Of a DNA stretch of 64,000 nt, positions 1-18,691 are shown piece by piece. The notes under the pieces were generated by a model. That model worked only from the letters and a program-made list of their open reading frames with translations. It was not told where the DNA came from and ran no database searches. The stretch covers positions 1-64,000 of the forward strand of contig CAVYNH010000001.1 of NCBI GenBank assembly GCA_963769885.1, read 5' to 3'. The first letter of the stretch is position 1. Each line of letters begins with the position of its first letter. This stretch comes from Methanobacteriota archaeon (GTDB taxonomy: Archaea > Thermoplasmatota > E2 > DHVEG-1). The translations under genes were made by a program, and so were the position numbers.

Positions 1-755
1 TCGGTCTTCTTAATCTCTAAAGCGGCGTTGACCAAGGCGATCTTGGCGTTGTGGACGTGCTTGGGCATGCCTTCGTGGACGCGTTCCTTGTCGAGGATGA
101 TGCCCTTGATGATCTTGGTATCGTTGATGCTACCGCCCTGTTTCTTCTGGATCTGGATGTTGTCCATGTCGACTTCGGTGCGTCCATCGATTTTCTCGGC
201 GACGCTGGTGACCGCGTCGACGACGACGTCGGAGAGGATTGCTTTTGCGGAGCTGGCTCCCTTGCTGGCCATGGAGGTCATGGCGATGTTCTTCAGCGTT
301 TTTTTGTCGTTGGGCTTGATCGGGATCGCCATCTTGTTGAGGATTTCGACCGCCTTTATGGCCGCCTTCTGGTATCCGCCCGTGATGACGGTGGGATGGA
401 TGTTCTGTTCGATGAGCTCGCCGGCGTTGCGAAGGAGTTCTCCGGTGAGGATCACGGCGGTGGTGGTGCCGTCGCCGCATTGTTCGTCTTGGGCTTTGGC
501 GACTTCGACGATCATTTTTGCGGCGGGGTGTTCGACGTCGATTTCTTTGAGGATGGTGGCGCCGTCGTTGGTGATGACGACGTCGCCCATGGAGTCGACG
601 AGCATCTTGTCCATGCCTTTGGGTCCGAGCGTGGATTTCACGGCGTCGGAGATTGCGCGGGCTGCCATGATGTTGTTGAGTTGGGCGCCTTTGCCTTTTT
701 CGCGTTTCGTGCCTTCTTTAAGGATGATTATGGGTGTCTGTCCTCCAGCCATCAT
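1..755 (-). CDS. Thermosome subunit, 5' part (mirror copy, runs off the window edge)
   Basis: Reverse complement of 18692-19446 (MMAGGQTPIIILKEG...GDGTTT). Confidence 0.9.
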   Translation of the reverse strand, partial: MMAGGQTPIIILKEGTKREKGKGAQLNNIMAARAISDAVKSTLGPKGMDKMLVDSMGDVVITNDGATILKEIDVEHPAAKMIVEVAKAQDEQCGDGTTTAVILTGELLRNAGELIEQNIHPTVITGGYQKAAIKAVEILNKMAIPIKPNDKKTLKNIAMTSMASKGASSAKAILSDVVVDAVTSVAEKIDGRTEVDMDNIQIQKKQGGSINDTKIIKGIILDKERVHEGMPKHVHNAKIALVNAALEIKKT

Positions 756-892
756 ACTGTTCTATGCCTCCTTTATAAGTAGGTTAAAAGCATTCCCAGC
801 ATATGGACACTTCTATATAAACCTATCTGAACAGGGTGCTGTGTAATACTGTAGTGGAAATTTAGTAGTGGAAAATCTGTAGTGGTATCAGA

Positions 893-2334
893 TTAGAAAC
901 CCATTTCTAATAATTCTTTTACTGATCTTAATGTAATATCTATATTCTCGCTTTTTATTCTTGCAACCTCTTCAAAAGCATCTTTAGTAAAACTAAAAGC
1001 AATAACTATGCCTTTATTGGTTTTAGCTCGCTTCATTGATGCCTCAAAATTATCTACTATGGGTCTTCCTACTTTATCCATTTGTTTTGCTTGGAGAACT
1101 GTTCCATCAATAGTATATCCATCAATACCCATGTCTTTTGCTTTCTTCGTCTGAATAGCGAAAAGAACATCACATACCCAGTTTTCAAACTCGAAAGGAT
1201 GCAATTTTCTAAGATCATCTTCTGTCTTTGGGAGTCCAATTATAGGAATGTTTTTCACGACAAACAATCCCATTTTTTTTACATTTCCCATACGATTTTT
1301 TATGACATTACATGCAGTAGGTGAAATATCAATACCAATCCATTTTCTCCTCAAATAATGTGCTGCAACGATAGTCGTACCACAGCCACAGAAAGGATCA
1401 AGTACAATGTCATTTTCATTTGAGGAAATCCGTATTATTCTTTCAAGTAAACGTTTTGGTTTTTGAGTTGGGTATTCCATCCATTCACTTTTTTCACTAT
1501 GTTTACCCATTCCACGCAACATAGAAATGTCAGTCCAAATGTCTTGAGGAGGTGTCCCCTTTGTTTCATCTAAATATCGCTTTTCATAAACCCTTCCATT
1601 CTTAGAATAAGCAAGACGTTTTTCTCTTTCCAATCTCCCCATCACCTCAACCGTATATTCCCAATGTCTCCCCTTTGGTGGATATTTTCCGTTCCATTTA
1701 TAATGCGCTGCCGTACCTTGCCTATCCCCAGGTGCGCTTATATCACCTTTATTGTATCGTCTTACATGTCCTTTTTCAATTTTTTTCCCAAGACGATTAA
1801 TAATATTTTTCGATGCAATTTCTTCATATTTATACCAAGTATCTGCGGTTTCTTCGCTAAGTGGAATGTATTCTTCTAATGCTTTGTTAAACGTGTACTC
1901 ATTTGATTTTGTATAAAATAAAATCGTATCATGCATAGCTCCATATTTATTGGTGAAACTTTGAGCATCTTTTCTTTTCCAAATTATTTCATTCTTAAAA
2001 TTATTATAACCAAAAATATCATCCATCACTATTTTGAGATAATGACTTGCATGACTATCGCAATGTAAATAAATCGACCCTTTACTGTCCAAAACACGAT
2101 GGCAAGTTCGAGTCTTTCCCTCATATATTCAATATAATGATGAATACCACCTTTCCATCGATCATCAAAGGCTTTTTTTTCGCTATTAGTGCCAAACACT
2201 ATATTATAAATCCTGCCACTTGAAAATGGTGGATCAAGATAAATTAAATTTACAAATCCTTCTGGAAATCGCCTCAATACATCAAGGCAATCTCCGCAGT
2301 AAATAGTATCGGTTTTTATTTGCATGTTTTCCAT
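893..2334 (-). pseudogene. DNA methyltransferase-Mrr-like fusion, mirror copy with a 1-bp deletion near 2105 (probably sequence error)
   Basis: ORFs 2029-2334 and 893-2092 together equal the intact 17112-18554. Confidence 0.85.
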
Positions 2335-2365
2335 TTTTAAATCTCCATTTGAATTATATAACTTT

Positions 2366-3527
2366 TCAATTCTGATTTTTAGCCTTTTGGTACTGAATTG
2401 ATTTTTTCATAAGTGTAAGCCATTTCTTTTTTCCTTCAATGGTTATCCCTGCTTCCTCACTCGGTGTTTTACCATCAAGTGTCTCATGTGGTTTAATGAA
2501 ATTGTAGTAAATCCTGTGCCCTTCAACGATAGGAGTTTTCTATCTTTATTCCTCTAATGCTTTTTCACGTTGCCGAATAGTCCCATGTAATCTTTCAACG
2601 TGGTTGTTATTTGGATGGTGCTTTAACCCTACATTCCATAGATGTTCGGTTTCATCATATTAGTTATAAACTCTTTGTTAATCGCATTTTTATATGCTGG
2701 TAGACCATCGGTAACAATGTATTTCGGTTTTCGTCCACCGCGTTCTTTTTTGCTTTCTGGAATACCATACGTGCATCTCTAACATGTCGTTCTTTTGATA
2801 CCACACTTGCTAATTGAAAACGTGTATTTTCATCCATGACATTCCAGAGGTACTCCCATGAGCCATCTATTTTAACCATCATTTCATCAGTATGCCATAC
2901 ATCCCCAATATCAGGTTGTATTTCATTGACGTATTCATTCATTATCCCTACATATTTTTCAATCCAATTGTAAACTGATTTATGGCAAATATTCAGATCA
3001 TAGAACTGTTTTAGATGTTGGCAGATTTTCCTGAGTGATATTCCTTTGAAATACAGATCAAGCGTTAATGCGATTATCTTAGGGTTATATTTCATATTCT
3101 CAAAATCAATATTATTGACAAATCTTCGATTACAGGTCTTACAGAAATAGACTTGTTTACTATTTTTCATCCCATATTTTGTCACTTCTGTTGAATGACA
3201 AAACTTACAGCAATCAACATCAATATCTGTTAACGTAATTTTCTGTTTCACTTTGAGATGTATTTGTTCAAATTTCTCTTTCAGGTTCTTCCATATCTTA
3301 ACCGCATTGATGTGTTTACAAGGTATTCCTCTTAGTTCAAAATCTGGACATGTACAATGCCAATACCGCATCTGTACATCAACTTGATATGTTCCATTTC
3401 CTGTCTGACTTGGCACTATCCACGTATGCGGATTAATCTCGGTTGGTTCTATTCCTTGTTTTAAAAGTGTCATGCCTCTAGCTTTTCTTGCGTTAACCAT
3501 TTCTTTAATATCTATTTTGTTGCCCAT
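2366..3527 (-). pseudogene. IS6/IS240-type DDE transposase with N-terminal SWIM and Zn-ribbon domains, frameshifted copy
   Basis: SWIM CTCPDF...CKHI; CxxC..CxxC ribbon; HTH (SLRKI...YNWI); WHTDE; TDG and NNHVERLHGT readable in shifted frames. Confidence 0.85.
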
Positions 3528-3685
3528 ATATTTCGCCAAGTTTTATAATACATTGTCAGTATATAAAGCTATCAGTTATCTTTATATATATAATAACCGT
3601 TTATGTGCAACATCAACGTACAACATAACTATGCACAAGGTATGTGCATCTTAATGTTGTATATAAAATTACAAGGAGAAAAACA

Positions 3686-4177
3686 ATGGATGACGCAATA
3701 AATAGAAGTCAAATCGGATTTTCAAAAGAGGAATTAAAAAAAATGTCTCCCGAAGATAGAAAAAGATTTGCTCGTTCAATCATATTAAAAGTTGTTAAAG
3801 ATAATCCACAAGGAATTAGTTTACCTCAAGTATCTGATGTTGCAGGGATTGATCGCAGAACAGCATCTAAACATTTAGATTACCTTACAGCGATCAGAGA
3901 GTTGTATAGGCGACAGTTTAGTCAAAGAAATTTCCTCTATTATCCTAATGGAAAAGTAGCCCATCCAACTTTAATAAAAGATGTAAAAATAGGTGAAAAA
4001 TATTATAACTTTCAATTGATCGAAAACCCTTTTGGTAAATTTGTGTATATCCAAGAAAAAACAAGAGATGAATACAATATTTTTACCATTGTCGGAGGAT
4101 TGATGTTAAATGCAAACCAACTCGATGAACTAATATTACATTTAAAAAATATTAAAAAAGAGGTCGATAGCATATGA
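3686..4177 (+). CDS. Winged-HTH protein with a C-terminal PUR/DUF3276-like nucleic-acid-binding domain
   Basis: ILKVVKDNPQGISLPQVSDVAGIDRRTASKHLDYL (wHTH); GEKYYNFQLIENPFGKFVYIQEK resembles a PUR repeat; aggag RBS; ATGA overlap with the next gene. Confidence 0.65.
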   Translation: MDDAINRSQIGFSKEELKKMSPEDRKRFARSIILKVVKDNPQGISLPQVSDVAGIDRRTASKHLDYLTAIRELYRRQFSQRNFLYYPNGKVAHPTLIKDVKIGEKYYNFQLIENPFGKFVYIQEKTRDEYNIFTIVGGLMLNANQLDELILHLKNIKKEVDSI

Positions 4178-5475
4178 AAGAAAAAGTAAAAAGATCAACC
4201 CAAGTGATGATCTATCCTGAAAAGAAAGTAAACAACGCAAGAATTACAACGATCAATTTAAACAATAAAACAATCAAAACACCCTGTTATATCCCTAAGA
4301 TAAGAACATCAAAAGAACTTGACATAATTATTGATGAAAAGAAAATAAATGACTATTTCCAAGGAATATTTTTTGATATATTAAATGTATCATCATTGAA
4401 CAGAGAGAAAACAATATTCAATCCTAAACAAACACGTTTAATCCCAATGATTTCCTATGATTTTAAAACCTTAAAAGGCATCCTCCCTGTTTTCATTGAT
4501 CCAAACACGGAATATCTTTATCTAAACAACAAGCAAAAAAGAACGCAATATAAAAATCTCCCGTCACTCCCACAAAAAATTTCTGATTTTTTAACCAAAT
4601 CAACATATGCGAATTATACTAAGATGTGGCAACAACTGTATAACTCAGGAGATACTACTACAGTCATCAACTGGAATGTAAGAGAACAAAATAAATATCA
4701 ACCTGATGCGATAGTACCATTCGTACCATTTATCGAGGGTGAAAACTCCCCTCTAATAGATATAGCAATTGATGTAAATAAAAAATCCGCTTTCACTATA
4801 GCGGATACCTTTGGTCTTGAACCATCTTTCTATTTTAACCTCAATTATTCAGCATTACGGAATTTAGATCAACTTAAAAAAATCACAGATTTCTTAATGG
4901 ACGTAGACGGAGAATATGAGAACGTAAAAATCATTTTCATCAAAATAAAATACTTCCCTCTGAATGATACCGATGTAAGAAGAAACCTCGGAACATTTGC
5001 CAAGTCTATTCAGGAAGCGGCTGAATTTAACAATAAATTTACTTTCTTGATAGATGCGGATGCATATGCCATACCATGTATATCCACTGGATTTGACGGT
5101 TTCATCGAACCATTAAATGGTTACATTAATGATTATGGCGGTAGCGGTAAATCTTCAAAATTCAGATCATATTATGACAGAAAACGAATGGAATTGGTAA
5201 AAGCAAATAAGATTAAAAATAAACCGTTAAAATGCGGTTGCCCCCGATGTTCAAAGATTAATGAAGTATATGGTGGCGCATTTTTTAACAAGATAGACCC
5301 GCATCTATGGAGTGCATGGAGTAAGGAACATTTGTTCTACAGTAGATGCCAAGAAGTAAAAGAAGTCAGGGACGCAATAAATGACAACGGCATAGCCAGG
5401 ATACAGGATAAATTCATCAACTCCTCCAAAAAAGATTTCATTGAAATTCTTGGTTACTACACTGATGGAGATTAA
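4174..5475 (+). CDS. Divergent tRNA-guanine transglycosylase (TGT/DpdA)-fold protein
   Basis: N-terminal ARITTINLNNKTIKTPCYIP resembles TGT ARxGxlxTxxGxIxTPxFMP; C-terminal CGCPRC...H...EVRDAI Zn site typical of TGT. Confidence 0.7.
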   Translation: MKEKVKRSTQVMIYPEKKVNNARITTINLNNKTIKTPCYIPKIRTSKELDIIIDEKKINDYFQGIFFDILNVSSLNREKTIFNPKQTRLIPMISYDFKTLKGILPVFIDPNTEYLYLNNKQKRTQYKNLPSLPQKISDFLTKSTYANYTKMWQQLYNSGDTTTVINWNVREQNKYQPDAIVPFVPFIEGENSPLIDIAIDVNKKSAFTIADTFGLEPSFYFNLNYSALRNLDQLKKITDFLMDVDGEYENVKIIFIKIKYFPLNDTDVRRNLGTFAKSIQEAAEFNNKFTFLIDADAYAIPCISTGFDGFIEPLNGYINDYGGSGKSSKFRSYYDRKRMELVKANKIKNKPLKCGCPRCSKINEVYGGAFFNKIDPHLWSAWSKEHLFYSRCQEVKEVRDAINDNGIARIQDKFINSSKKDFIEILGYYTDGD

Positions 5476-5672
5476 AACAGATTAAATTTTTTACCATCCC
5501 TATCGAAAAAACTACATAAGTTTTTTGGCGAAACATATGAGCTTAATGATAGGGATGGCAAGAACATCAATGTCATTTGTTTTTAAAATAGTTTGCAAAC
5601 CTAAAATACACAAAATATTTAAAAAATAAAAAATTACATACATTCAGAAGAATAGAGATAGAGGACATATTT

Positions 5673-6182
5673 ATGTGTGAAAAAGAAATAAGACAATACA
5701 ATTCAATTATTTCAATTTGGGAAAGATGGGATAAAGGATATTGGGACTCATTTCATTTTTATATTATTGTCATATCCTTATTATTCGCAGGCTATTCTCA
5801 AATAATAAATAAAATAAATATTGCAGCAGTAATAGTTTGTTTTACTGGTTTTATAATAAGTATTTTCTGGTTCTTTATTTTGCATAGAAAATATGCCCAT
5901 ATTCTTATAGCAGAAAATGAAGGAAGAAAATTAGAGACTAAAATATTCACAGATTGTAATGGTTGTTTTACTTCAAATAAAAATTTTAAGAAAGGAACAT
6001 ATAACGAAATTGATGAAGCTTTAGGTTGTAGAAAATTCTTAACAAAAATAAGTTCTGGTTTAATTGTATCATTTTTTGTACCATTAACATTTACCATAAT
6101 CTGGTTAACATTAATGATTATAACAACAGTTCATTGGATAATTAAGGATGTCTGTCCTTTCATCATATCAGTTATAACATAA
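5673..6182 (+). CDS. Small membrane protein (about 3 TM helices), transposon cargo
   Basis: Hydrophobic segments; gagga RBS; stop codon abuts the subterminal repeats. Confidence 0.7.
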   Translation: MCEKEIRQYNSIISIWERWDKGYWDSFHFYIIVISLLFAGYSQIINKINIAAVIVCFTGFIISIFWFFILHRKYAHILIAENEGRKLETKIFTDCNGCFTSNKNFKKGTYNEIDEALGCRKFLTKISSGLIVSFFVPLTFTIIWLTLMIITTVHWIIKDVCPFIISVIT

Positions 6183-6240
6183 CCATCTAAATTTCCCACT
6201 ACTGATTTCCCACTACAGTATTACACAGAACCCTGAACAG

Positions 6241-6292
6241 GGTTCTGTGTAACCGTGGTTTGGGCAGTTTAGACTGGGAAATCTAGGTTGGT
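6241..6292 (+). mobile_element. Terminus of a second related IS6-like element (mirror of 13159-13210)
   Basis: GGTTCTGTGTAA immediately follows the TSD, then diverged 14-bp-periodic TGGG repeats. Confidence 0.7.
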
Positions 6293-6375
6293 TTCTCCGA
6301 GAGTCGCTGATAAAAGGAAAATGATAAAACAAACAAGATGATGTAGATTTGCTTTCAAATTTAAAGGAGGTAAAT

Positions 6376-6657
6376 ATGGGTGTTGAAGCTTATAAAGAAT
6401 GCAGAGGCTTGGTAGAATCCTATGTTTGTAATAGAGGAACGACTATACAACGTGCTATAAAAAACATAAACACAAGACTGAAAAAAGCAAAATTAACCGA
6501 TCAAGATATTGAAAAAATTCTTGCGGAAGTCAATAAAAATAATGTATCTGATTTTGAAAATTCAACTGCTTTCCCCAATCTTTTTCAAGAAAGAAAACAA
6601 AGATTTGAACTCATAGAGAAAGAACTACAACAATTATTGAATATACATCTAGCTTAG
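6376..6657 (+). CDS. Hypothetical protein, 93 aa
   Basis: ggagg RBS, ATG at 6376, open frame. Confidence 0.6.
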   Translation: MGVEAYKECRGLVESYVCNRGTTIQRAIKNINTRLKKAKLTDQDIEKILAEVNKNNVSDFENSTAFPNLFQERKQRFELIEKELQQLLNIHLA

Positions 6658-6703
6658 TTTTAGGTCCTACCGGAATTGAAGAATACTATTTCCCAAAGTA
6701 TAA

Positions 6704-6856
6704 GGGCCTGGTTCATAATTCGTTTCTCCTGTTGAACAAATCGTAAAGAATCTTGTGAGCTGCTGCTTTCCTGCTTCTTTTCTTCCAAATCACGCGCACT
6801 CTAGAATCAACAGTCTTTTAGACAATTTCTCCTGTTGGGAATTATGAACCAAGCCC
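6704..6856. mobile_element. MITE or internally deleted IS: 153 bp, 18-bp TIR, 9-bp TSD aaagtataa
   Basis: GGGCCTGGTTCATAATTC ... GAATTATGAACCAAGCCC; TSD at 6695-6703 and 6857-6865. Confidence 0.85.
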
Positions 6857-7018
6857 AAAGTATAAACGAAAGGATGGGAATTTTAGTTTTACAAATCCTT
6901 TTAACAAGCCGATGGATAAACAGTATTGGTTTCCCCGTATTGCGTCGTTCACCAAACTACGCTCAGTAGAAGACTTCTGATAAGTCAGGCTTTCTACCAG
7001 GGGAGACGGGAAAAAAAT

Positions 7019-7342
7019 ATGGTCGAAGAAACAACAGAGAAGAGAACAGCTGAAAAAGGAAGAACCGATGAAAACGTGATATATGTTGGAAAGAAACCCC
7101 CAATGAGCTATGTGCTTGCAATAGTAACACAGTTCAATAGTGGATCAGATGAAGTAATAATAAAAGCTAGAGGCAGAACGATTAGCACAGCAGTCGATGC
7201 TGCAGAAATAACCAGGAACCGGTTTGTCACAGACGTGAAAGTCAAAGACATAAAAATTAGTACTGAAAGTATCACCAATGAGGAAGGGAGAACCTCGAAT
7301 GTATCTTCAATGGAAATCTGCTTAACGAAAAAGAAAAAATAA
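7019..7342 (+). CDS. albA: DNA/RNA-binding protein Alba (mirror copy)
   Basis: [15 protein letters not shown]...[17 protein letters not shown]. Confidence 0.95.
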
Positions 7343-7387
7343 AGAAGTAATTGAAAAATAAGAGAAGAAAAAAAAGAGGGATATGGA

Positions 7388-9682
7388 CTAATATTGTAGT
7401 CCTAATCTTTGGATTATTTTTTGTAGGATTGGGAACAGATTAGGATGATTCTCTACGAACCTTAGGAATGGTACGTGAGTATATGCTTTGTTTGTAGGCA
7501 TAGTCACTGACAATGTCGACTCTGGACCTATTAAACCATTAACATCCTCAGCTCTTGCTTTGATAAAATAAGTCCCTCGACTACTCCAAGTGTGTGATAC
7601 CGTTACATCTGTACCAGATGGACTAAAAGCAGTCGTATCAGAGGTATTATCACCCCACTCAATGATGTAACGAACTTGATCTCCATCTGGATCTACTGCG
7701 TTGAATATATAGTTATACCCTATTCCTACTATTCCACTTGTTGGACCATTTATTGTTGGTGCATTTGGAGGATTTCCACCGCCACCGGTGAACTTTGCCA
7801 CAAAAGCATCTCCACCGCCGTTGTAGATTCTGTCGTAGGCTCCTAGTGTCGTCGGAAAATCAGAAGAATAGGTTGCACCGGTGATGGAGGCTTCCCCATC
7901 ATCAATCGCAATATCATGGCCATAATCATAATAGGTTCCGCCGAGGTAGGTACTGTAGATAAGGATGTTACCACCAGGGGAAAGCTTCGACACAAAAACA
8001 TCTCCACCGCCGTTGTAGGTGGTGTCGTAGGCTCCTAGTGTCGTCGGGAAATTAGAAGAATTGGTGCCACCGGTGATGTAGGCGTTCCCACCAGCAACCG
8101 CAATACAATAGCCCCGATCAATATCAGTTCCGCCGAGGTATGTACTATAGTTAAGGGAGTTACCAGTACTGAGTAACTTTGTCACAAAAGCATCTCCACC
8201 GCCGTTGTAGGTGGTGTCGTAGGCTCCTAGTGTCGTCGGGAAATTAGAAGAATAGGTGTAACCGGTGATATAGGCGTTCCCATCAGCAACTGCAATACCA
8301 AGGCCCTCATCATTAAGGGTTCCGCCGAGGTAGGTACTGTAGATAAGGGAGCTGCCAGTACGGGGAAACTTTGTCACAAAAACATCATACCCGCCGTTGT
8401 AGGTGGGGTCGTAGGCTCCTAGTGTCGGGAAATTAGAAGAATTGGTGCCACCGGTGATGTAGGCGTTCCCATCAGCAACTGCAATACCATAGCCATAATC
8501 ATAACCTATTCCGCCGAGGTATGTACTGTAGGCAAGGGCGTTGCCAGCAGGGCGAAACTGTGTCACAAAAGCATCACTATAACCGTTGTAGGTGGTGTCG
8601 TAGGCGCCGGGTGTTATCGGAAAATCAAAATCAGAAGAATAGGTTGCACCGGTGATGGAGGCGTTCCCACCAGCAACTGCAATACCATAGCCATAATCAG
8701 AACTGGTTCCGCCGAGATAGGTACGATAGATAAGAATGCTACCATAAGGGGAAAGCTTAGTCACAAAAACATCACAATAACCGTTGTAGGTGGTGTCGTA
8801 GGCTCCTAGTGTCGTCGGAAAATCAGAAGACCAGGTGCCACCGGTGATGTAGGCGTTCCCATCATCAACCGCAATATCATGGCCCCGTTCATTATTGGTT
8901 CCGCCGAGGTAGGTACTGTAGATAAGGGCGTTACCAGCAAGGGGAAGCTTCGACACAAAAACATCATACTGGCCGTTGTAGGTTCTGTCGTAGGCTTGTG
9001 GTGTCGTCGGAAAATCAGGAGAATTGGTGTAACCGGTGATGTAGGCGTTCCCATCATCAACCGCAATACCAAGGCCCTCATCATAATAGGTTCCGCCGAG
9101 GTAGGTACTATACGCCAGCGTAGGGTCGATAACAAGTGGATACAACGGATTGTATTCATCCTCGATAGCAAAACCGAAACTATTTGGCTGTCTGGGTTCG
9201 TATCTTCCTATAATCCCTTGTTTTATGCCGTTGATTTCTTGGTATATCACCGGTGATTTCTCGGAAAATAGACCAAACCGGGTCTCTATCGCAAGGTCAC
9301 CATCTGATGTTACCCTCATGTTATCAACACCATCATATCGAATAAGAATCGTATCTGGGTCTCCACCAGAATAGACAATGAAATCGTATTTCAACGTGTT
9401 CTCAATGAAATGGTACTGTAAATCAATTCCAGGGTAGATACCCTTGTACACAACCTCTTGGTAATTCGGAACATCGGTATACCACTTCTCAGGGTTATTT
9501 CCAATGAAATAGTTGTTATTGTTAGGAAGTCGACGCTCACCGGTAACGACTGCACTGGGGTTTGCGCCAACAAACTCCGCGACCGTAGAAATCATCTCCA
9601 TCTGTTGCGGTTCTCTTACTTGTATTCGTTCCATCGGGTTTTTGTTATCCTTCAAATCGGCACTCTTAGAATCGTTTAATTC
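7388..9682 (-). CDS. SBBP-repeat beta-propeller/PKD surface protein, 5'-truncated at the fold-back
   Basis: Tandem YSTYLGG...AYITG.T.S.DFPTT.GAYD.TYNG..DVFV repeats; PKD-like WGD domain; amphipathic C-terminal tail. Confidence 0.85.
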   Translation of the reverse strand, partial: ELNDSKSADLKDNKNPMERIQVREPQQMEMISTVAEFVGANPSAVVTGERRLPNNNNYFIGNNPEKWYTDVPNYQEVVYKGIYPGIDLQYHFIENTLKYDFIVYSGGDPDTILIRYDGVDNMRVTSDGDLAIETRFGLFSEKSPVIYQEINGIKQGIIGRYEPRQPNSFGFAIEDEYNPLYPLVIDPTLAYSTYLGGTYYDEGLGIAVDDGNAYITGYTNSPDFPTTPQAYDRTYNGQYDVFVSKLPLAGNALIYSTYLGGTNNERGHDIAVDDGNAYITGGTWSSDFPTTLGAYDTTYNGYCDVFVTKLSPYGSILIYRTYLGGTSSDYGYGIAVAGGNASITGATYSSDFDFPITPGAYDTTYNGYSDAFVTQFRPAGNALAYSTYLGGIGYDYGYGIAVADGNAYITGGTNSSNFPTLGAYDPTYNGGYDVFVTKFPRTGSSLIYSTYLGGTLNDEGLGIAVADGNAYITGYTYSSNFPTTLGAYDTTYNGGGDAFVTKLLSTGNSLNYSTYLGGTDIDRGYCIAVAGGNAYITGGTNSSNFPTTLGAYDTTYNGGGDVFVSKLSPGGNILIYSTYLGGTYYDYGHDIAIDDGEASITGATYSSDFPTTLGAYDRIYNGGGDAFVAKFTGGGGNPPNAPTINGPTSGIVGIGYNYIFNAVDPDGDQVRYIIEWGDNTSDTTAFSPSGTDVTVSHTWSSRGTYFIKARAEDVNGLIGPESTLSVTMPTNKAYTHVPFLRFVENHPNLFPILQKIIQRLGLQY

Positions 9683-12063
9683 CCGGAAGAAGTACCGTTT
9701 CAGACGCATGCCCCCGGGGCAACCGTCTATCTCTGCAAGAACAAAATCGTCTCAGTGTTCACCAGAGAATTAAACGATTCTAAGAGTGCCGATTTGAAGG
9801 ATAACAAAAACCCGATGGAACGAATACAAGTAAGAGAACCGCAACAGATGGAGATGATTTCTACGGTCGCGGAGTTTGTTGGCGCAAACCCCAGTGCAGT
9901 CGTTACCGGTGAGCGTCGACTTCCTAACAATAACAACTATTTCATTGGAAATAACCCTGAGAAGTGGTATACCGATGTTCCGAATTACCAAGAGGTTGTG
10001 TACAAGGGTATCTACCCTGGAATTGATTTACAGTACCATTTCATTGAGAACACGTTGAAATACGATTTCATTGTCTATTCTGGTGGAGACCCAGATACGA
10101 TTCTTATTCGATATGATGGTGTTGATAACATGAGGGTAACATCAGATGGTGACCTTGCGATAGAGACCCGGTTTGGTCTATTTTCCGAGAAATCACCGGT
10201 GATATACCAAGAAATCAACGGCATAAAACAAGGGATTATAGGAAGATACGAACCCAGACAGCCAAATAGTTTCGGTTTTGCTATCGAGGATGAATACAAT
10301 CCGTTGTATCCACTTGTTATCGACCCTACGCTGGCGTATAGTACCTACCTCGGCGGAACCTATTATGATGAGGGCCTTGGTATTGCGGTTGATGATGGGA
10401 ACGCCTACATCACCGGTTACACCAATTCTCCTGATTTTCCGACGACACCACAAGCCTACGACAGAACCTACAACGGCCAGTATGATGTTTTTGTGTCGAA
10501 GCTTCCCCTTGCTGGTAACGCCCTTATCTACAGTACCTACCTCGGCGGAACCAATAATGAACGGGGCCATGATATTGCGGTTGATGATGGGAACGCCTAC
10601 ATCACCGGTGGCACCTGGTCTTCTGATTTTCCGACGACACTAGGAGCCTACGACACCACCTACAACGGTTATTGTGATGTTTTTGTGACTAAGCTTTCCC
10701 CTTATGGTAGCATTCTTATCTATAGTACCTATCTCGGCGGAACCAGTTCTGATTATGGCTATGGTATTGCAGTTGCTGGTGGGAACGCCTCCATCACCGG
10801 TGCAACCTATTCTTCTGATTTTGATTTTCCGATAACACCCGGCGCCTACGACACCACCTACAACGGTTATAGTGATGCTTTTGTGACACAGTTTCGCCCT
10901 GCTGGCAACGCCCTTGCCTACAGTACATACCTCGGCGGAATAGGTTATGATTATGGCTATGGTATTGCAGTTGCTGATGGGAACGCCTACATCACCGGTG
11001 GCACCAATTCTTCTAATTTCCCGACACTAGGAGCCTACAACCCCACCTACAACGGCGGGTATGATGTTTTTGTGACAAAGTTTCCCCGGTACTGGCAGCT
11101 CCCTTATCTACAGTACCTACCTCGGCGGAACCCTTAATGATGAGGGCCTTGGTATTGCAGTTGCTGATGGGAACGCCTATATCACCGGTTACACCTATTC
11201 TTCTAATTTCCCGACGACACTAGGAGCCTACGACACCACCTACAACGGCGGTGGAGATGCTTTTGTGACAAAGTTACTCAGGACCTGGTAACTCCCTTAA
11301 CTATAGTACATACCTCGGCGGAACTGATATTGATCGGGGCTATTGTATTGCGGTTGCTGGTGGGAACGCCTACATCACCGGTGGCACCAATTCTTCTAAT
11401 TTCCCGACGACACTAGGAGCCTACGACACCACCTACAACGGCGGTGGAGATGTTTTTGTGTCGAAGCTTTCCCCTGGTGGTAACATCCTTATCTACAGTA
11501 CCTACCTCGGCGGAACCTATTATGATTATGGCCATGATATTGCGATTGATGATGGGGAAGCCTCCATCACCGGTGCAACCTATTCTTCTGATTTTCCGAC
11601 GACACTAGGAGCCTACGACAGAATCTACAACGGCGGTGGAGATGCTTTTGTGGCAAAGTTCACCGGTGGCGGTGGAAATCCTCCAAATGCACCAACAATA
11701 AATGGTCCAACAAGTGGAATAGTAGGAATAGGGTATAACTATATATTCAACGCAGTAGATCCAGATGGAGATCAAGTTCGTTACATCATTGAGTGGGGTG
11801 ATAATACCTCTGATACGACTGCTTTTAGTCCATCTGGTACAGATGTAACGGTATCACACACTTGGAGTAGTCGAGGGACTTATTTTATCAAAGCAAGAGC
11901 TGAGGATGTTAATGGTTTAATAGGTCCAGAGTCGACATTGTCAGTGACTATGCCTACAAACAAAGCATATACTCACTTACCATTCCTAAGGTTCGTAGAG
12001 AATCATCCTAATCTGTTCCCAATCCTACAAAAAATAATCCAAAGATTAGGACTACAATATTAG
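9680..12063 (+). pseudogene. SBBP-repeat/PKD surface protein, 5'-truncated, with frameshifts near 11088 and 11282 (probably sequence errors)
   Basis: Frame is open from 9680 (FPEEVPFQTHAPGATVYLCKNKIVSVFTRE); ORFs 9755-11137 and 11458-12063; the mirror copy has no frameshifts. Confidence 0.85.
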
Positions 12064-12108
12064 TCCATATCCCTCTTTTTTTTCTTCTCTTATTTTTCAA
12101 TTACTTCT

Positions 12109-12432
12109 TTATTTTTTCTTTTTCGTTAAGCAGATTTCCATTGAAGATACATTCGAGGTTCTCCCTTCCTCATTGGTGATACTTTCAGTACTAATTTTTA
12201 TGTCTTTGACTTTCACGTCTGTGACAAACCGGTTCCTGGTTATTTCTGCAGCATCGACTGCTGTGCTAATCGTTCTGCCTCTAGCTTTTATTATTACTTC
12301 ATCTGATCCACTATTGAACTGTGTTACTATTGCAAGCACATAGCTCATTGGGGGTTTCTTTCCAACATATATCACGTTTTCATCGGTTCTTCCTTTTTCA
12401 GCTGTTCTCTTCTCTGTTGTTTCTTCGACCAT
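12109..12432 (-). CDS. albA: DNA/RNA-binding protein Alba
   Basis: Alba motifs GKKP and KARG. Confidence 0.95.
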
Positions 12433-12594
12433 ATTTTTTTCCCGTCTCCCCTGGTAGAAAGCCTGACTTATCAGAAGTCTTCTACTGAGCGTAGTTTGGT
12501 GAACGACGCAATACGGGGAAACCAATACTGTTTATCCATCGGCTTGTTAAAAGGATTTGTAAAACTAAAATTCCCATCCTTTCGTTTATACTTT

Positions 12595-12747
12595 GGGCTT
12601 GGTTCATAATTCCCAACAGGAGAAATTGTCTAAAAGACTGTTGATTCTAGAGTGCGCGTGATTTGGAAGAAAAGAAGCAGGAAAGCAGCAGCTCACAAGA
12701 TTCTTTACGATTTGTTCAACAGGAGAAACGAATTATGAACCAGGCCC
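12595..12747. mobile_element. MITE, 153 bp, 9-bp TSD ttatacttt
   Basis: 18-bp TIR with 1 mismatch; TSD at 12586-12594 and 12748-12756. Confidence 0.85.
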
Positions 12748-12793
12748 TTATACTTTGGGAAATAGTATTCTTCAATTCCGGTAGGACCTAAAA

Positions 12794-13075
12794 CTAAGCT
12801 AGATGTATATTCAATAATTGTTGTAGTTCTTTCTCTATGAGTTCAAATCTTTGTTTTCTTTCTTGAAAAAGATTGGGGAAAGCAGTTGAATTTTCAAAAT
12901 CAGATACATTATTTTTATTGACTTCCGCAAGAATTTTTTCAATATCTTGATCGGTTAATTTTGCTTTTTTCAGTCTTGTGTTTATGTTTTTTATAGCACG
13001 TTGTATAGTCGTTCCTCTATTACAAACATAGGATTCTACCAAGCCTCTGCATTCTTTATAAGCTTCAACACCCAT
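12794..13075 (-). CDS. Hypothetical protein, 93 aa
   Basis: Mirror of 6376-6657. Confidence 0.6.
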   Translation of the reverse strand: MGVEAYKECRGLVESYVCNRGTTIQRAIKNINTRLKKAKLTDQDIEKILAEVNKNNVSDFENSTAFPNLFQERKQRFELIEKELQQLLNIHLA

Positions 13076-13158
13076 ATTTACCTCCTTTAAATTTGAAAGC
13101 AAATCTACATCATCTTGTTTGTTTTATCATTTTCCTTTTATCAGCGACTCTCGGAGAA

Positions 13159-13210
13159 ACCAACCTAGATTTCCCAGTCTAAACTGCCCAAACCACGGTT
13201 ACACAGAACC
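13159..13210 (-). mobile_element. Terminus of a second related IS6-like element abutting the TSD
   Basis: ...ttacacagaacc|ctgttcag|ggttctgtgtaa... Confidence 0.7.
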
Positions 13211-13268
13211 CTGTTCAGGGTTCTGTGTAATACTGTAGTGGGAAATCAGTAGTGGGAAATTTAGATGG

Positions 13269-13778
13269 TTATGTTATAACTGATATGATGAAAGGACAGA
13301 CATCCTTAATTATCCAATGAACTGTTGTTATAATCATTAATGTTAACCAGATTATGGTAAATGTTAATGGTACAAAAAATGATACAATTAAACCAGAACT
13401 TATTTTTGTTAAGAATTTTCTACAACCTAAAGCTTCATCAATTTCGTTATATGTTCCTTTCTTAAAATTTTTATTTGAAGTAAAACAACCATTACAATCT
13501 GTGAATATTTTAGTCTCTAATTTTCTTCCTTCATTTTCTGCTATAAGAATATGGGCATATTTTCTATGCAAAATAAAGAACCAGAAAATACTTATTATAA
13601 AACCAGTAAAACAAACTATTACTGCTGCAATATTTATTTTATTTATTATTTGAGAATAGCCTGCGAATAATAAGGATATGACAATAATATAAAAATGAAA
13701 TGAGTCCCAATATCCTTTATCCCATCTTTCCCAAATTGAAATAATTGAATTGTATTGTCTTATTTCTTTTTCACACAT
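13269..13778 (-). CDS. Small membrane protein, transposon cargo
   Basis: Identical protein to 5673-6182. Confidence 0.7.
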   Translation of the reverse strand: MCEKEIRQYNSIISIWERWDKGYWDSFHFYIIVISLLFAGYSQIINKINIAAVIVCFTGFIISIFWFFILHRKYAHILIAENEGRKLETKIFTDCNGCFTSNKNFKKGTYNEIDEALGCRKFLTKISSGLIVSFFVPLTFTIIWLTLMIITTVHWIIKDVCPFIISVIT

Positions 13779-13975
13779 AAATATGTCCTCTATCTCTATT
13801 CTTCTGAATGTATGTAATTTTTTATTTTTTAAATATTTTGTGTATTTTAGGTTTGCAAACTATTTTAAAAACAAATGACATTGATGTTCTTGCCATCCCT
13901 ATCATTAAGCTCATATGTTTCGCCAAAAAACTTATGTAGTTTTTTCGATAGGGATGGTAAAAAATTTAATCTGTT

Positions 13976-15275
13976 TTAATCTCCATCAGTGTAGTAACCA
14001 AGAATTTCAATGAAATCTTTTTTGGAGGAGTTGATGAATTTATCCTGTATCCTGGCTATGCCGTTGTCATTTATTGCGTCCCTGACTTCTTTTACTTCTT
14101 GGCATCTACTGTAGAACAAATGTTCCTTACTCCATGCACTCCATAGATGCGGGTCTATCTTGTTAAAAAATGCGCCACCATATACTTCATTAATCTTTGA
14201 ACATCGGGGCAACCGCATTTTAACGGTTTATTTTTAATCTTATTTGCTTTTACCAATTCCATTCGTTTTCTGTCATAATATGATCTGAATTTTGAAGATT
14301 TACCGCTACCGCCATAATCATTAATGTAACCATTTAATGGTTCGATGAAACCGTCAAATCCAGTGGATATACATGGTATGGCATATGCATCCGCATCTAT
14401 CAAGAAAGTAAATTTATTGTTAAATTCAGCCGCTTCCTGAATAGACTTGGAAATGTTCCGAGGTTTCTTCTTACATCGGTATCATTCAGAGGGAAGTATT
14501 TTATTTTGATGAAAATGATTTTTACGTTCTCATATTCTCCGTCTACGTCCATTAAGAAATCTGTGATTTTTTTAAGTTGATCTAAATTCCGTAATGCTGA
14601 ATAATTGAGGTTAAAATAGAAAGATGGTTCAAGACCAAAGGTATCCGCTATAGTGAAAGCGGATTTTTTATTTACATCAATTGCTATATCTATTAGAGGG
14701 GAGTTTTCACCCTCGATAAATGGTACGAATGGTACTATTGCATCAGGTTGATATTTATTTTGTTCTCTTACATTCCAGTTGATGACTGTAGTAGTATCTC
14801 CTGAGTTATACAGTTGTTGCCACATCTTAGTATAATTCGCATATGTTGATTTGGTTAAAAAATCAGAAATTTTTTGTGGGAGTGACGGCAGATTTTTATA
14901 TTGCGTTCTTTTTTGCTTGTTGTTTAGATAAACATATTCCGTGTTTGGATCAATGAAAACAGGGAGGATGCCTTTTAAGGTTTTAAAATCATAGGAAATC
15001 ATTGGGATTAAACGTGTTTGTTTAGGATTGAATATTGTTTTCTCTCTGTTCAATGATGATACATTTAATATATCAAAAAATATTCCTTGGAAATAGTCAT
15101 TTATTTTCTTTTCATCAATAATTATGTCAAGTTCTTTTGATGTTCTTATCTTAGGGATATAACAGGGTGTTTTGATTGTTTTATTGTTTAAATTGATCGT
15201 TGTAATTCTTGCGTTGTTTACTTTCTTTTCAGGATAGATCATCACTTGGGTTGATCTTTTTACTTTTTCTTTCAT
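13976..15275 (-). pseudogene. TGT-fold protein, copy with two frameshifts (probably sequence errors)
   Basis: Three ORF fragments together match the intact 4174-5475. Confidence 0.75.
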
Positions 15276-15762
15276 ATGCTATCGACCTCTTTTTTAATAT
15301 TTTTTAAATGTAATATTAGTTCATCGAGTTGGTTTGCATTTAACATCAATCCTCCGACAATGGTAAAAATATTGTATTCATCTCTTGTTTTTTCTTGGAT
15401 ATACACAAATTTACCAAAAGGGTTTTCGATCAATTGAAAGTTATAATATTTTTCACCTATTTTTACATCTTTTATTAAAGTTGGATGGGCTACTTTTCCA
15501 TTAGGATAATAGAGGAAATTTCTTTGACTAAACTGTCGCCTATACAACTCTCTGATCGCTGTAAGGTAATCTAAAGTTGAGATGCGGTTCTGCGATCAAT
15601 CCCTGCAACATCAGATACTTGAGGTAAACTAATTCCTTGTGGATTATCTTTAACAACTTTTAATATGATTGAACAAGCAAATCTTTTTCTATCTTCGGGA
15701 GACATTTTTTTTAATTCCTCTTTTGAAAATCCGATTTGACTTCTATTTATTGCGTCATCCAT
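15272..15762 (-). pseudogene. wHTH-PUR-like protein, copy frameshifted near 15580
   Basis: Fragments match 3686-4177. Confidence 0.7.
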
Positions 15763-15921
15763 TGTTTTTCTCCTTGTAATTTTATATACAACATTAAGAT
15801 GCACATACCTTGTGCATAGTTATGTTGTACAGTTGATGTTGCACATAAACGGTTATTATATATATAAAGATAACTGATAGCTTTATATACTGACAATGTA
15901 TTATAAAACTTGGCGAAATAT

Positions 15922-17080
15922 ATGGGCAACAAAATAGATATTAAAGAAATGGTTAACGCAGAAAAGCTAGAGGCATGACACTTTTAGAACAAGGAATAGA
16001 ACCAACCGAGATTAATCCGCATACGTGGATAGTGCCAAGTCAGACAGGAAATGGAACATATCAAGTTGATGTCCAGATGCGGTATTGGCATTGTACATGT
16101 CCAGATTTTGAACTAAAAGTATTGTAAACACATCAATGCGGTTAAGATATGGAAGAACCTGAAAGAGAAATTTGAACAAATACATCTCAAAGTGAAACAG
16201 AAAATTACGTTAACAGATATTGATGTTGATTGCTGTAAGTTTTGTCATTCAACAGAAGTGACAAAATATGGGATGAAAAATAGTAAACAAGTCTATTTCT
16301 GTAAGACCTGTAATCGAAGATTTGTCAATAATGTTGACTTCGAGAATATGAAATATAACCCTAAGATAATCGCATTAACGCTTGATCTGTATTTCAAAGG
16401 AATAAGTCTCAGGAAAATAAGCCAACATCTAAAACAATTCTATGAACTGAATATAAGCCATAAATCAGTTTACAACTGGATAGAAAAATATGTAGGGATA
16501 ATGAATGAATACGTCAATGAAATACAACCTGATATTGGGGAAGTATGGCATACTGACGAAATGATGATTAAAATAGATGGCTCATGGAGACCTCTGGAAT
16601 GTCATGGACGAACGTACACGGTTTCAACTCGCTTCTGTGGTATCAAAAGAACGATATGTTAAAGATGCACGTATGGTATTTCAGAAGGCAAAAAAGAACT
16701 GCGGTGGACGCAAGCCGAAGTTCATGGTTACCGATGGTCTACCCGCATATAGGGATGCGGTGAACAAGGAGTTTAAAACTAATACTGATGAAACAGAACA
16801 CCTATGGAATGTGGGGTTACAGCACCATCCAAATAACAACCACATTGAAAGATTACATGGGACAATACGGGATCGTGAAAAAACATTTAGAGGGTTAAAG
16901 ATAGAAAGTACCCCTATTATTGATGGGAACAGGATTTACTACAATTTCATAAAACCACATGAAAATCTTGATGGTAAAACTCCGAGTGAGGAATCGGGAA
17001 TAATCATTGAAGGAAATAATAAATGGCTTACTCTTATGAAAAAATCAATTCAGTACCAAAAGGCTAAAAATCAGAATTGA
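15922..17080 (+). pseudogene. SWIM/Zn-ribbon IS6-type DDE transposase, frameshifted copy
   Basis: WHTDE, VTDGLPAY, NNHIERLHGTIRDR, YYNFIKPH...GKTP. Confidence 0.85.
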
Positions 17081-17111
17081 AAAGTTATATAATTCAAATG
17101 GAGATTTAAAA

Positions 17112-18554
17112 ATGGAAAACATGCAAATAAAAACCGATACTATTTACTGCGGAGATTGCCTTGATGTATTGAGGCGATTTCCAGAAGGATTTGTAAATTT
17201 AATTTATCTTGATCCACCATTTTCAAGTGGCAGGATTTATAATATAGTGTTTGGCACTAATAGCGAAAAAAAAGCCTTTGATGATCGATGGAAAGGTGGT
17301 ATTCATCATTATATTGAATATATGAGGGAAAGACTCGAACTCTGCCATCGTGTTTTGGACAGTAAAGGGTCGATTTATTTACATTGCGATAGTCATGCAA
17401 GTCATTATCTCAAAATAGTGATGGATGATATTTTTGGTTATAATAATTTTAAGAATGAAATAATTTGGAAAAGAAAAGATGCTCAAAGTTTCACCAATAA
17501 ATATGGAGCTATGCATGATACGATTTTATTTTATACAAAATCAAATGAGTACACGTTTAACAAAGCATTAGAAGAGTACATTCCACTTAGCGAAGAAACC
17601 GCAGATACTTGGTATAAATATGAAGAAATTGCATCGAAAAATATTATTAATCGTCTTGGGAAAAAAATTGAAAAAGGACATGTAAGACGATACAATAAAG
17701 GTGATATAAGCGCACCTGGGGATAGGCAAGGTACGGCAGCGCATTATAAATGGAACGGAAAATATCCACCAAAGGGGAGACATTGGGAATATACGGTTGA
17801 GGTGATGGGGAGATTGGAAAGAGAAAAACGTCTTGCTTATTCTAAGAATGGAAGGGTTTATGAAAAGCGATATTTAGATGAAACAAAGGGGACACCTCCT
17901 CAAGACATTTGGACTGACATTTCTATGTTGCGTGGAATGGGTAAACATAGTGAAAAAAGTGAATGGATGGAATACCCAACTCAAAAACCAAAACGTTTAC
18001 TTGAAAGAATAATACGGATTTCCTCAAATGAAAATGACATTGTACTTGATCCTTTCTGTGGCTGTGGTACGACTATCGTTGCAGCACATTATTTGAGGAG
18101 AAAATGGATTGGTATTGATATTTCACCTACTGCATGTAATGTCATAAAAAATCGTATGGGAAATGTAAAAAAAATGGGATTGTTTGTCGTGAAAAACATT
18201 CCTATAATTGGACTCCCAAAGACAGAAGATGATCTTAGAAAATTGCATCCTTTCGAGTTTGAAAACTGGGTATGTGATGTTCTTTTCGCTATTCAGACGA
18301 AGAAAGCAAAAGACATGGGTATTGATGGATATACTATTGATGGAACAGTTCTCCAAGCAAAACAAATGGATAAAGTAGGAAGACCCATAGTAGATAATTT
18401 TGAGGCATCAATGAAGCGAGCTAAAACCAATAAAGGCATAGTTATTGCTTTTAGTTTTACTAAAGATGCTTTTGAAGAGGTTGCAAGAATAAAAAGCGAG
18501 AATATAGATATTACATTAAGATCAGTAAAAGAATTATTAGAAATGGGTTTCTAA
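17112..18554 (+). CDS. Beta-class N4/N6 DNA methyltransferase fused to a C-terminal Mrr-like PD-(D/E)xK domain
   Basis: DPPF (motif IV) lies before DPFCGCGTT (motif I); C-terminal FEFENWV...DMGIDGY...QAKQ. Confidence 0.88.
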   Translation: MENMQIKTDTIYCGDCLDVLRRFPEGFVNLIYLDPPFSSGRIYNIVFGTNSEKKAFDDRWKGGIHHYIEYMRERLELCHRVLDSKGSIYLHCDSHASHYLKIVMDDIFGYNNFKNEIIWKRKDAQSFTNKYGAMHDTILFYTKSNEYTFNKALEEYIPLSEETADTWYKYEEIASKNIINRLGKKIEKGHVRRYNKGDISAPGDRQGTAAHYKWNGKYPPKGRHWEYTVEVMGRLEREKRLAYSKNGRVYEKRYLDETKGTPPQDIWTDISMLRGMGKHSEKSEWMEYPTQKPKRLLERIIRISSNENDIVLDPFCGCGTTIVAAHYLRRKWIGIDISPTACNVIKNRMGNVKKMGLFVVKNIPIIGLPKTEDDLRKLHPFEFENWVCDVLFAIQTKKAKDMGIDGYTIDGTVLQAKQMDKVGRPIVDNFEASMKRAKTNKGIVIAFSFTKDAFEEVARIKSENIDITLRSVKELLEMGF

Positions 18555-18624
18555 TCTGATACCACTACAGATTTTCCACTACTAAATTTCCACTACAGTA
18601 TTACACAGCACCCTGTTCAGATAG

Positions 18625-18632
18625 GTTTATAT
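18625..18632 (+). promoter_or_regulatory. Putative TATA box of the thermosome gene
   Basis: tttatata about 60 bp upstream of the ATG; ggagg RBS downstream. Confidence 0.55.
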
Positions 18633-18691
18633 AGAAGTGTCCATATGCTGGGAATGCTTTTAACCTACTTATAAAGGAGGCATAGAACAGT

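Follow-up and report, generated by a model that had tools for sequence, protein, structure and literature searches.

The first 64,000 nucleotides of contig C1 (CAVYNH010000001.1, assembly GCA_963769885.1), the start of a contig from a 2.09-Mb archaeal genome bin, form the window of this analysis and give the numbering used throughout. Positions 3686 to 5475 of the window carry a tRNA-guanine transglycosylase (TGT)-like gene and a small partner gene, and the pair has the look of a module for conflict or regulation that is so far undescribed, rather than that of a DNA-modifying enzyme of a known kind. The partner gene (3686..4177, + strand, 163 aa) encodes a predicted winged helix-turn-helix (wHTH) domain at residues ~24-89 and a beta-beta-beta-alpha unit resembling a PUR repeat at its C-terminus (residues ~100-162). 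The TGT-like gene (4174..5475, + strand, 433 aa) encodes a predicted zinc-binding barrel of the TGT superfamily with a remodelled pocket. Two readings of the pair are live: the TGT-like protein may be the effector of a conflict module, or it may be a dead sensor or co-regulator, and we lean to the first. A conflict module, serving defence or addiction, whose TGT-like effector has non-canonical chemistry is given a probability of about 0.4.

The partner open reading frame (3644/3686-4177, + strand) has two possible starts. An AGGAG box lies 8 nt 5' of the ATG at 3686, and the 163-aa form is therefore the likely partner product. Its stop codon and the start of the TGT-like gene overlap in an ATGA at 4174-4177, a GAGGT box precedes the latter start by 9 nt, and the pair is transcribed divergently from a transposase with SWIM and DDE_Tnp_IS240 domains. 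An earlier note on this DNA had described an ATGA-overlapping two-gene operon divergent from a transposase, and the open reading frames and their overlap are as it described them. Both genes are under strong purifying selection, with dN/dS values of 0.059 (TGT-like gene) and 0.082 (partner gene) between the window and the copies at the related locus L001. The same note called the module possibly undescribed, and neither protein falls into any curated family of Pfam, NCBIfam, PHROGs or PADLOC. Prediction of a complex between the partner and the TGT-like protein gave scores of 0.72, 0.00 and 0.00 in three runs and weighs neither for nor against one.

Fold and zinc site of the TGT-like protein

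The sequence similarity to known TGT families is faint. The Pfam TGT family (PF01702) matches the protein below threshold (17.7 bits against a cut-off of 26.3) and over the zinc region only, NCBIfam tgt_general also remains below its cut-off (20 bits against 47.6), and Pfam TGT matches 3 of 49 relatives at an E-value of 0.01 or better. The relatives form a family of 83 clusters, almost all 420-450 aa long, in an exhaustive HMMER search over 1.84 billion cluster representatives; fused forms of 813-2320 aa were looked for and none were found. The profile of 49 relatives matches arcTGT (1iq8) with an E-value of 1.2e-11, and the matched stretches include the N-terminal strand motif and the zinc region. 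In the latter, C354, C356, C359 and H386 align to the zinc ligands of arcTGT and are kept in 38-46 of the 49 relatives. The TGT N-terminal strand motif and the CxCxxC...H site, both of which had been noticed by eye, are thus retained. A global hhalign comparison with 22 canonical TGT/arcTGT catalytic domains of the same phylum gives a probability of 98.2% and an E-value of 2e-13.

The AlphaFold2 (AF2) model of the TGT-like protein has a pLDDT of 90.4 and matches arcTGT 1iq8 with a Z of 27.4 over 331 residues at a root-mean-square deviation (rmsd) of 3.3 (VIA-align). Bacterial TGT (25.9), QTRT2 (22.2), Cap10 (18.9) and DpdA (16.9) follow on the same Z scale, whereas unrelated TIM barrels reach at most 13 against the same model. 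The fold comparison that had been proposed as a check of the earlier note therefore yields a TGT barrel, and the 433-aa protein is predicted to combine this barrel with an N-terminal hairpin and a C-terminal helical zinc subdomain.

A fold search of the ESM Atlas found as nearest structures (TM 0.71) Bacillota proteins of 665-683 aa in which a Ser/Thr protein kinase is fused to a TGT-like barrel. Unannotated proteins of Bacillota and Actinomycetota were found as well, and all of these outscore the canonical TGT clusters (TM 0.67). The kinase-barrel fusions hint at a broader unannotated clade that may be linked to signalling.

Active-site residues

TGT and DpdA share three invariant aspartates, of which the two with a catalytic role are indispensable (PMC10164549). 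When the equivalents of these residues are mapped by alignment, one of the three is kept in the TGT-like family. D109 aligns in hhalign with the general acid/base aspartate of the DSG motif and is kept in 46 of 49 relatives. The guanine-reading aspartate (Zm D156, DpdA D130) is aligned to a conserved PPxP (P182-P185) that has no conserved acid, in a region where alignment confidence is low. The nucleophile aspartate, which is the last D of GxDxFD (Zm D280, DpdA D256), is aligned to I311, a variable column. By this alignment the base-reading and nucleophile aspartates are missing, and the family therefore lacks the three-aspartate set that defines TGT and DpdA. The active site had already been suspected of being remodelled from by-eye alignments of DSGG to FIDPNTEY and of GxDxFD to GFDGFIE. 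The same correspondences emerge from hhalign (IDPNTEY with TDSGxFQ, and GFDGFIE with GxDxFDS), and the mapping of the aspartates agrees with the suspicion.

The family has a near-invariant polar set of its own, comprising D109-P110, E113, K257, D308 and mostly E312. By alignment, D308 is the first D of GxDxFD, and E312, next to the variable position 311, is present in 36 of 49 relatives, while E113 is kept in 42 of 49. D109, P110, K257, D308 and H386 are kept in at least 92% of the 49 sequences, which are 18-35% identical overall. R383 and R384, which adjoin the zinc site, are also conserved. This pattern of conservation is that of a pocket probably rebuilt rather than decayed.

Partner protein and candidate operator

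The AF2 model of the partner has a pLDDT of 85.8. Residues 24-89 match many wHTH and Z-alpha domains with a Z of 9-10.4 and an rmsd of 1.0-1.8, and MarR_2, HTH_5 and HTH_IclR are matched in many members of the partner family, which comprises ~85 clusters and is thus near the TGT-like family in number. The C-terminus consists of a sheet and a long helix. Its best match outside wHTH proteins is Borrelia Pur-alpha 3nm7 (Foldseek E 4e-3, TM 0.57-0.62 over 67-70 columns), and Pfam PurA gives weak matches to 4 of 50 partner members, with a best E-value of 0.0027. The protein had been labelled wHTH-PUR; the wHTH half of the label stands, the PUR half amounts to a similarity, and the label as a whole is reasonable with its PUR part taken as putative. 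The C-terminal unit resembles bacterial Pur-alpha in its beta-sheet and helix, and differs in being fused to a wHTH domain and in having a weak sequence signal. The partner has a single PUR-like repeat, and it would therefore need to dimerise.

The divergent intergenic region (3528..3685) contains TATA-like boxes and an operator-like repeat set at 3607-3661, in which ACAACAT occurs twice directly and once inverted within a 19-nt inverted repeat (3619-3661). The ACAACAT repeats sit between the TATA-like box and the partner start codon. The motif occurs in a similar repeat arrangement before the partner gene in L001, L014, L015, L016, L063 and L065, whose partners are 39-47% identical, and more distant clades have other repeats or palindromes at the equivalent position. 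In the 165-nt stretches ahead of the partner gene, the 7-mer TGTTGTA/TACAACA reaches 17-fold enrichment, with 13 occurrences in 6.7 kb compared with 34 in 295 kb; the rest of the 5.4-kb element that carries the pair has none. The conservation of the ACAACAT repeats at the promoter is good, if indirect, evidence that the wHTH partner represses its own operon from this candidate operator.

Conservation of the pairing

Counted from the partner, the TGT-like gene overlaps or abuts it downstream in 25 of the 28 assessable loci among 31 metagenome loci, which were found with a narrower alignment. Counted from the TGT-like protein, the partner lies directly upstream in 11 of 12 fetched contexts, which span identities of 95% to 21%. 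The P0010 clade departs from this pattern: its TGT-like protein is 54% identical and has a CxxC-rich zinc-ribbon protein encoded upstream instead. Neighbourhood analysis of homologs, which had been named as a check, thus links the TGT-like gene to the wHTH gene and to mobile elements. The zinc-ribbon gene of the P0010 clade is separated from the TGT-like gene, with no overlap, in L005 (7304-7774) and L006 (119-637).

The distribution is rare and patchy. The family is present in 2 of 401 genomes of the phylum, and the narrower-alignment search found, besides the 31 metagenome loci, one other GTDB genome locus, in a Hydrothermarchaeota metagenome-assembled genome (MAG). The same narrower alignment gave no match in IMG/VR, and tblastn of the TGT-like protein (P0001) gave none in the phage and plasmid collections.

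Effector or sensor

The favoured reading can be stated as a mechanism. The two genes would form one autoregulated operon, carried as cargo by an archaeal IS6-like transposon beside restriction-modification genes. The partner would dimerise or tetramerise via its PUR-like unit and repress the operon by binding the ACAACAT repeats that separate the TATA box from the start codon of the partner gene. The TGT-like protein would still be an enzyme, though one that does not exchange guanine for 7-deazaguanine; it would bind nucleic acid through the retained zinc and arginine surface, and attack the base-sugar bond, or bind the base, by a new chemistry. The TGT-like protein would then be the effector of a conflict module, and the partner its regulator and possibly a neutraliser or targeting subunit. 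Three points favour this reading: conservation of the new polar residues equals that of the zinc ligands, the two genes are arranged like an autoregulated toxin-antitoxin operon of the HipBA shape, and the neighbours are restriction systems, PIN proteins and DUF3800 proteins on mobile DNA. The conflict setting is seen in the elements themselves, which carry a methyltransferase-Mrr fusion, BglII with a methyltransferase, or DUF3800.

Several points weigh against an effector. PADLOC matches neither protein, and no defence gene is constant as a neighbour. Conservation is higher in the partner (39-43% identity) than in the TGT-like protein (30-35%), and most toxin-antitoxin pairs show the reverse pattern. 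By profile alignment, from which the residue equivalences also derive, the family lacks two of the three invariant aspartates of TGT and DpdA, and loss of catalysis is accordingly a serious alternative.

The second live reading starts from this alternative, and we hold it to be somewhat less probable than the first. Here a dead TGT-like subunit that binds a ligand or nucleic acid would modulate the wHTH-PUR repressor, and the pair would act as a switch for genes of the mobile element or for defence genes. The variable nucleophile position (I311) and the replacement of the base-recognition aspartate by PPxP are what such a subunit would show, the non-catalytic QTRT2 is close in structure, the operator at the partner is conserved, and conservation is higher in the partner than in the TGT-like protein. 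The TGT-related TIM-B (phage P4 beta) has moreover been proposed, in a 2026 preprint, as a negative regulator of effectors (10.64898/2026.10.19.760177). However, the alignment places the near-invariant polar residues D109, E113, K257 and D308 at the ends of strands, as is usual for active barrels, and no target gene is constant as a neighbour, since the adjoining cargo varies. The dN/dS of 0.06 shows constraint and is compatible with binding as well as with catalysis. The effector reading is preferred over the sensor.

A bolder form of the effector reading is improbable as it stands, though worth setting out. It would make the family a new catalytic branch of the TGT fold, in which K257, D109, D308 and E113/E312 take the place of the aspartate nucleophile and a base of DNA or tRNA is excised or replaced, while the wHTH-PUR partner guides or restrains the enzyme; archaea would then have, in this pair, a new defence or toxin-antitoxin system dispersed by IS6-like cargo transposons. 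If true, this would add a further branch outside tRNA modification to the TGT fold, alongside DpdA, which modifies DNA, and Cap10, which deazaguanylates protein. The zinc subdomain, which contacts nucleic acid in canonical TGTs, would have been retained while the chemistry changed. The pair is also the commonest cargo seen here of little-known archaeal IS6-like transposons that carry restriction systems. Its function, once found, would bring to light either a nucleic-acid enzyme or a principle of regulation that is new, and would help to explain how defence genes move among uncultured archaea.

The transposon carrying the pair

The pair lies in an island (835-6232) with a GC content of 28-36% against ~50% in the flanks. 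The island is a real IS6-like cargo transposon of 5,398 bp with four passenger genes, and the placement of the pair inside a transposon, also claimed from the start, is secured by its ends. The left (835..884, + strand) and right (6183..6232, - strand) terminal inverted repeats (TIRs) pair with each other, are ~50 bp long and imperfect, and start with GGTGCTGTGTAA and GGTTCTGTGTAA, respectively, each with two GTAGTGG(G/A)AA boxes; the left one shows them as two GTAGTGGAAA-type boxes behind GGTGCTGTGTAA. They are flanked by an 8-bp target-site duplication, CTGAACAG, which is read directly at 827..834 and repeated with the same bases at 6233..6240. Upstream of the thermosome gene, a TTTATATA box lies at a distance of 5 nt from the duplication. 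A second related element has one end, starting GGTTCTGTGTAACC (6241..6290, + strand), directly against the right copy; the matching far end of that element was looked for and not found.

Besides the pair, the element contains an N6/N4 DNA methyltransferase fused to an Mrr-type nuclease domain (893..2335, - strand; Pfam N6_N4_Mtase 1.2e-38, Mrr_cat 1.7e-08), the IS6-like transposase with a SWIM zinc finger and DDE_Tnp_IS240 (2370..3527, - strand, lower boundary approximate), and a 169-aa membrane protein matching Pfam 8xMP (5673..6182, + strand). The membrane protein is cargo of the window copy only and is absent from the L001 element.

Two sister elements of the host genome, C4:264441-271645 (L012) and C6:779109-783578 (L013), have the same type of ends and perfect 8-bp duplications, CACCCCAA and CCTATTGG, respectively, so that three elements of this genome have perfect 8-bp duplications. 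One sister carries a 941-aa Eco57I/MmeI-type (type IIG) restriction-modification enzyme and a PIN protein, and the other carries unknown genes only, with a weak 2TM match. The window transposase has two paralogues elsewhere in the genome that are 72-74% identical.

Members of the IS6/IS26 family are ~0.8 kb long, with a single known passenger-carrying member (PMC7986276). The elements described here share with them the DDE_Tnp_IS240 domain, the GG-starting ends and the 8-bp target duplications. In contrast, they are 4.5-7.2 kb long with 3-6 passenger genes, their TIRs of ~50 bp contain internal boxes, and their transposase has a SWIM and zinc-ribbon N-terminus. With GG ends, an IS240-type DDE domain and 8-bp duplications at a larger size and with cargo, they are therefore unusual cargo-carrying relatives of IS6/IS26.

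Pair-carrying elements of other genomes were delimited as well. The element of L022, a Methanoperedenaceae MAG, spans 4717-9847 with a target duplication of ~CTATAGG, and that of L026 spans 4825-9874 with the duplication TAATCCAG; both have the transposase. The L001 element (4588-9473) has the transposase and no target duplication, and the L024 element (6643-9934) has neither, carrying the pair and DUF3800. The TIRs are wholly different among the clades of pair-carrying elements. A divergent homologous transposase is directly upstream of the pair in the window, L001, L022 and L026, and in 7 of ~17 metagenome loci with enough upstream DNA, or about 40%. Beyond the transposase, homologues of the methyltransferase or of the methyltransferase-Mrr fusion are present in L001, L026, L077 and L080. 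Identities to L022 are 38% for the transposase, 40% for the partner and 32% for the TGT-like protein; those to L026 are 29% and 33% for the first two, with a weak match of the TGT-like protein.

Such roughly parallel divergence points to an old association between pair and transposase, one that is not obligatory either way. The suggestion that the pair assists transposition, by regulating or targeting the divergent IS6-like transposase, for example through the shared promoter region or in the choice of insertion site, draws on this parallel divergence and on the position of the pair beside the 5' end of the divergent transposase in the window, L001, L022, L026, L065, L066, L076, L077, L080, L082 and L089. 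It is weakened, however, by the two sister elements, whose transposases are 77-78% identical to the intact L001 homologue, whose ends are the same and whose duplications are perfect, and in which the profiles of the pair find no homologue. The pair is conversely found with no nearby transposase in L024, L064, L071, L072, L083-85, L092 and L095, and the operator adjoins the partner gene at ~80-130 bp from the transposase start. Because pair and transposase each occur without the other, a role in transposition is unlikely.

Two of the related loci have features of their own. The L024 element, with 3.3 kb, IS6-type ends (GGTTCTGGTAAC...) and no transposase, looks like a non-autonomous cargo element. 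L001 (JGI 3300048655) holds the closest relative of the window element, on a 52.8-kb contig of nearly all short open reading frames with no Pfam match, which is virus- or plasmid-like; the cargo of its element includes a BglII-type endonuclease and a methyltransferase in place of the methyltransferase-Mrr fusion.

Relation to known systems

The arcTGT (1iq8) and bacterial TGT (for example 3unt) enzymes are the best structural matches of the TGT-like protein. The model shares with them the (beta-alpha)8 barrel, the N-terminal hairpin K-x-I-x-T-P, the aspartate of the DSG position (D109), the GxDxF strand and the CxCxxC...H subdomain. In contrast, the identity to both is 11-14%, the base-recognition and nucleophile aspartates are replaced, and strand 3 is followed by a helical insert of ~60 residues. 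With its end at residue 433, the protein lacks the C1-C3/PUA tRNA-binding domains of arcTGT, and the match covers only 1iq8 residues 6-351. The TGT-like gene also has a wHTH-PUR partner and is located on mobile DNA, and the host, whose bin encodes thermosome, Alba, DnaK, QueC and QueD, has a separate arcTGT of its own.

QTRT2 (6fv5), the non-catalytic subunit of eukaryotic TGT, is alike in having the TGT fold and a zinc site with an incomplete catalytic set. However, QTRT2 pairs with a catalytic paralogue, none of which is encoded at the locus, and the TGT-like family has a polar set of its own. Cap10 of type IV CBASS (9ntn) is likewise a TGT fold with remodelled surfaces that was recruited to a conflict system. 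In Cap10 the zinc site is absent, the catalytic and base-reading aspartates are present, and the partners are Cap9 and a CD-NTase, whereas the TGT-like protein keeps the zinc site, misses those aspartates and has no such neighbours.

TIM-B (phage P4 beta) is a TGT-related barrel of two-gene conflict operons and is a proposed regulator of the adjacent effector (10.64898/2026.10.19.760177). The neighbours described for it, among them Gop, PAACC, HigB and RES, are not those of the loci studied here, and no wHTH-PUR partner is described for it. P0001 matched no PHROGs family, and with no sequence match to phage families TIM-B is therefore a parallel and not a family to which the protein belongs. 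Type II toxin-antitoxin systems such as HipBA resemble the pair in layout only: a small gene for a predicted DNA-binding protein is located upstream, overlaps a larger gene and is preceded by operator-like repeats.

The neighbourhood was also examined for genes of the deazaguanine systems, and their reported absence holds for the element and for the related loci examined. No dpdB, dpdC or preQ0-synthesis genes are present in the element or in these loci, no Cap9 (QueC-like) or CD-NTase gene is found among the neighbours, and no queC or queD is nearby, since QueC is encoded at C4:253045 and QueD at C4:161930. DpdA (7ui4) shares with the TGT-like protein the superfamily and a place on mobile or defence DNA; it keeps three aspartates and works with DpdB (PMC10164549), whereas the TGT-like protein misses two. 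A DpdA-like role, in which host-made preQ0 or another 7-deazaguanine is inserted into DNA at a sequence targeted by the partner and shields the element from restriction, would fit the superfamily, the kept zinc site, the adjoining DNA methyltransferases and a host that encodes QueC and QueD, makes preQ0 and so needs no linked synthesis genes, yet it is very unlikely, because D109 is the one residue of the three invariant aspartates (PMC10164549) that aligns and a new conserved set stands instead, and DpdA is further the most distant of the TGT-type structural matches, dpdB and dpdC are absent, and the phage and plasmid collections hold no match.

Mirror duplication at the contig start

Positions 1-9691 are the reverse complement of 9758-19446, with 98.9% identity, 86 mismatches and 20 gap bases. 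The mismatches are concentrated in the multi-copy transposase (2250-3500), and the other differences are scattered single-base gaps. The palindrome is probably a fold-back assembly artefact with uneven polishing. Its centre cuts the 5' end of a gene for a surface protein with DUF7948, an SBBP beta-propeller and PKD (7388-9709, - strand; mirror 9755-12063, + strand), which has tandem repeat units of ~192 nt, and the whole structure is at the very start of the contig. Through the mirror duplication, every gene of 1-9691 is therefore listed twice, in copies with different frameshifts.

The second arm contains a mirror copy of the whole element (13211..18620, - strand). The arms are broken in different genes: the methyltransferase-Mrr fusion is broken in the first by a 1-base gap at 2104 and is intact in the second (17112-18554, 480 aa), while in the second arm single-base gaps split the TGT-like gene in three (13994-15254) and the partner gene is broken too. 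The transposase is frameshifted in both arms, and its L001 relative is intact (387 aa). Both genes of the pair are intact in the first arm, and the relative P0006, which is 95% identical, is intact as well.

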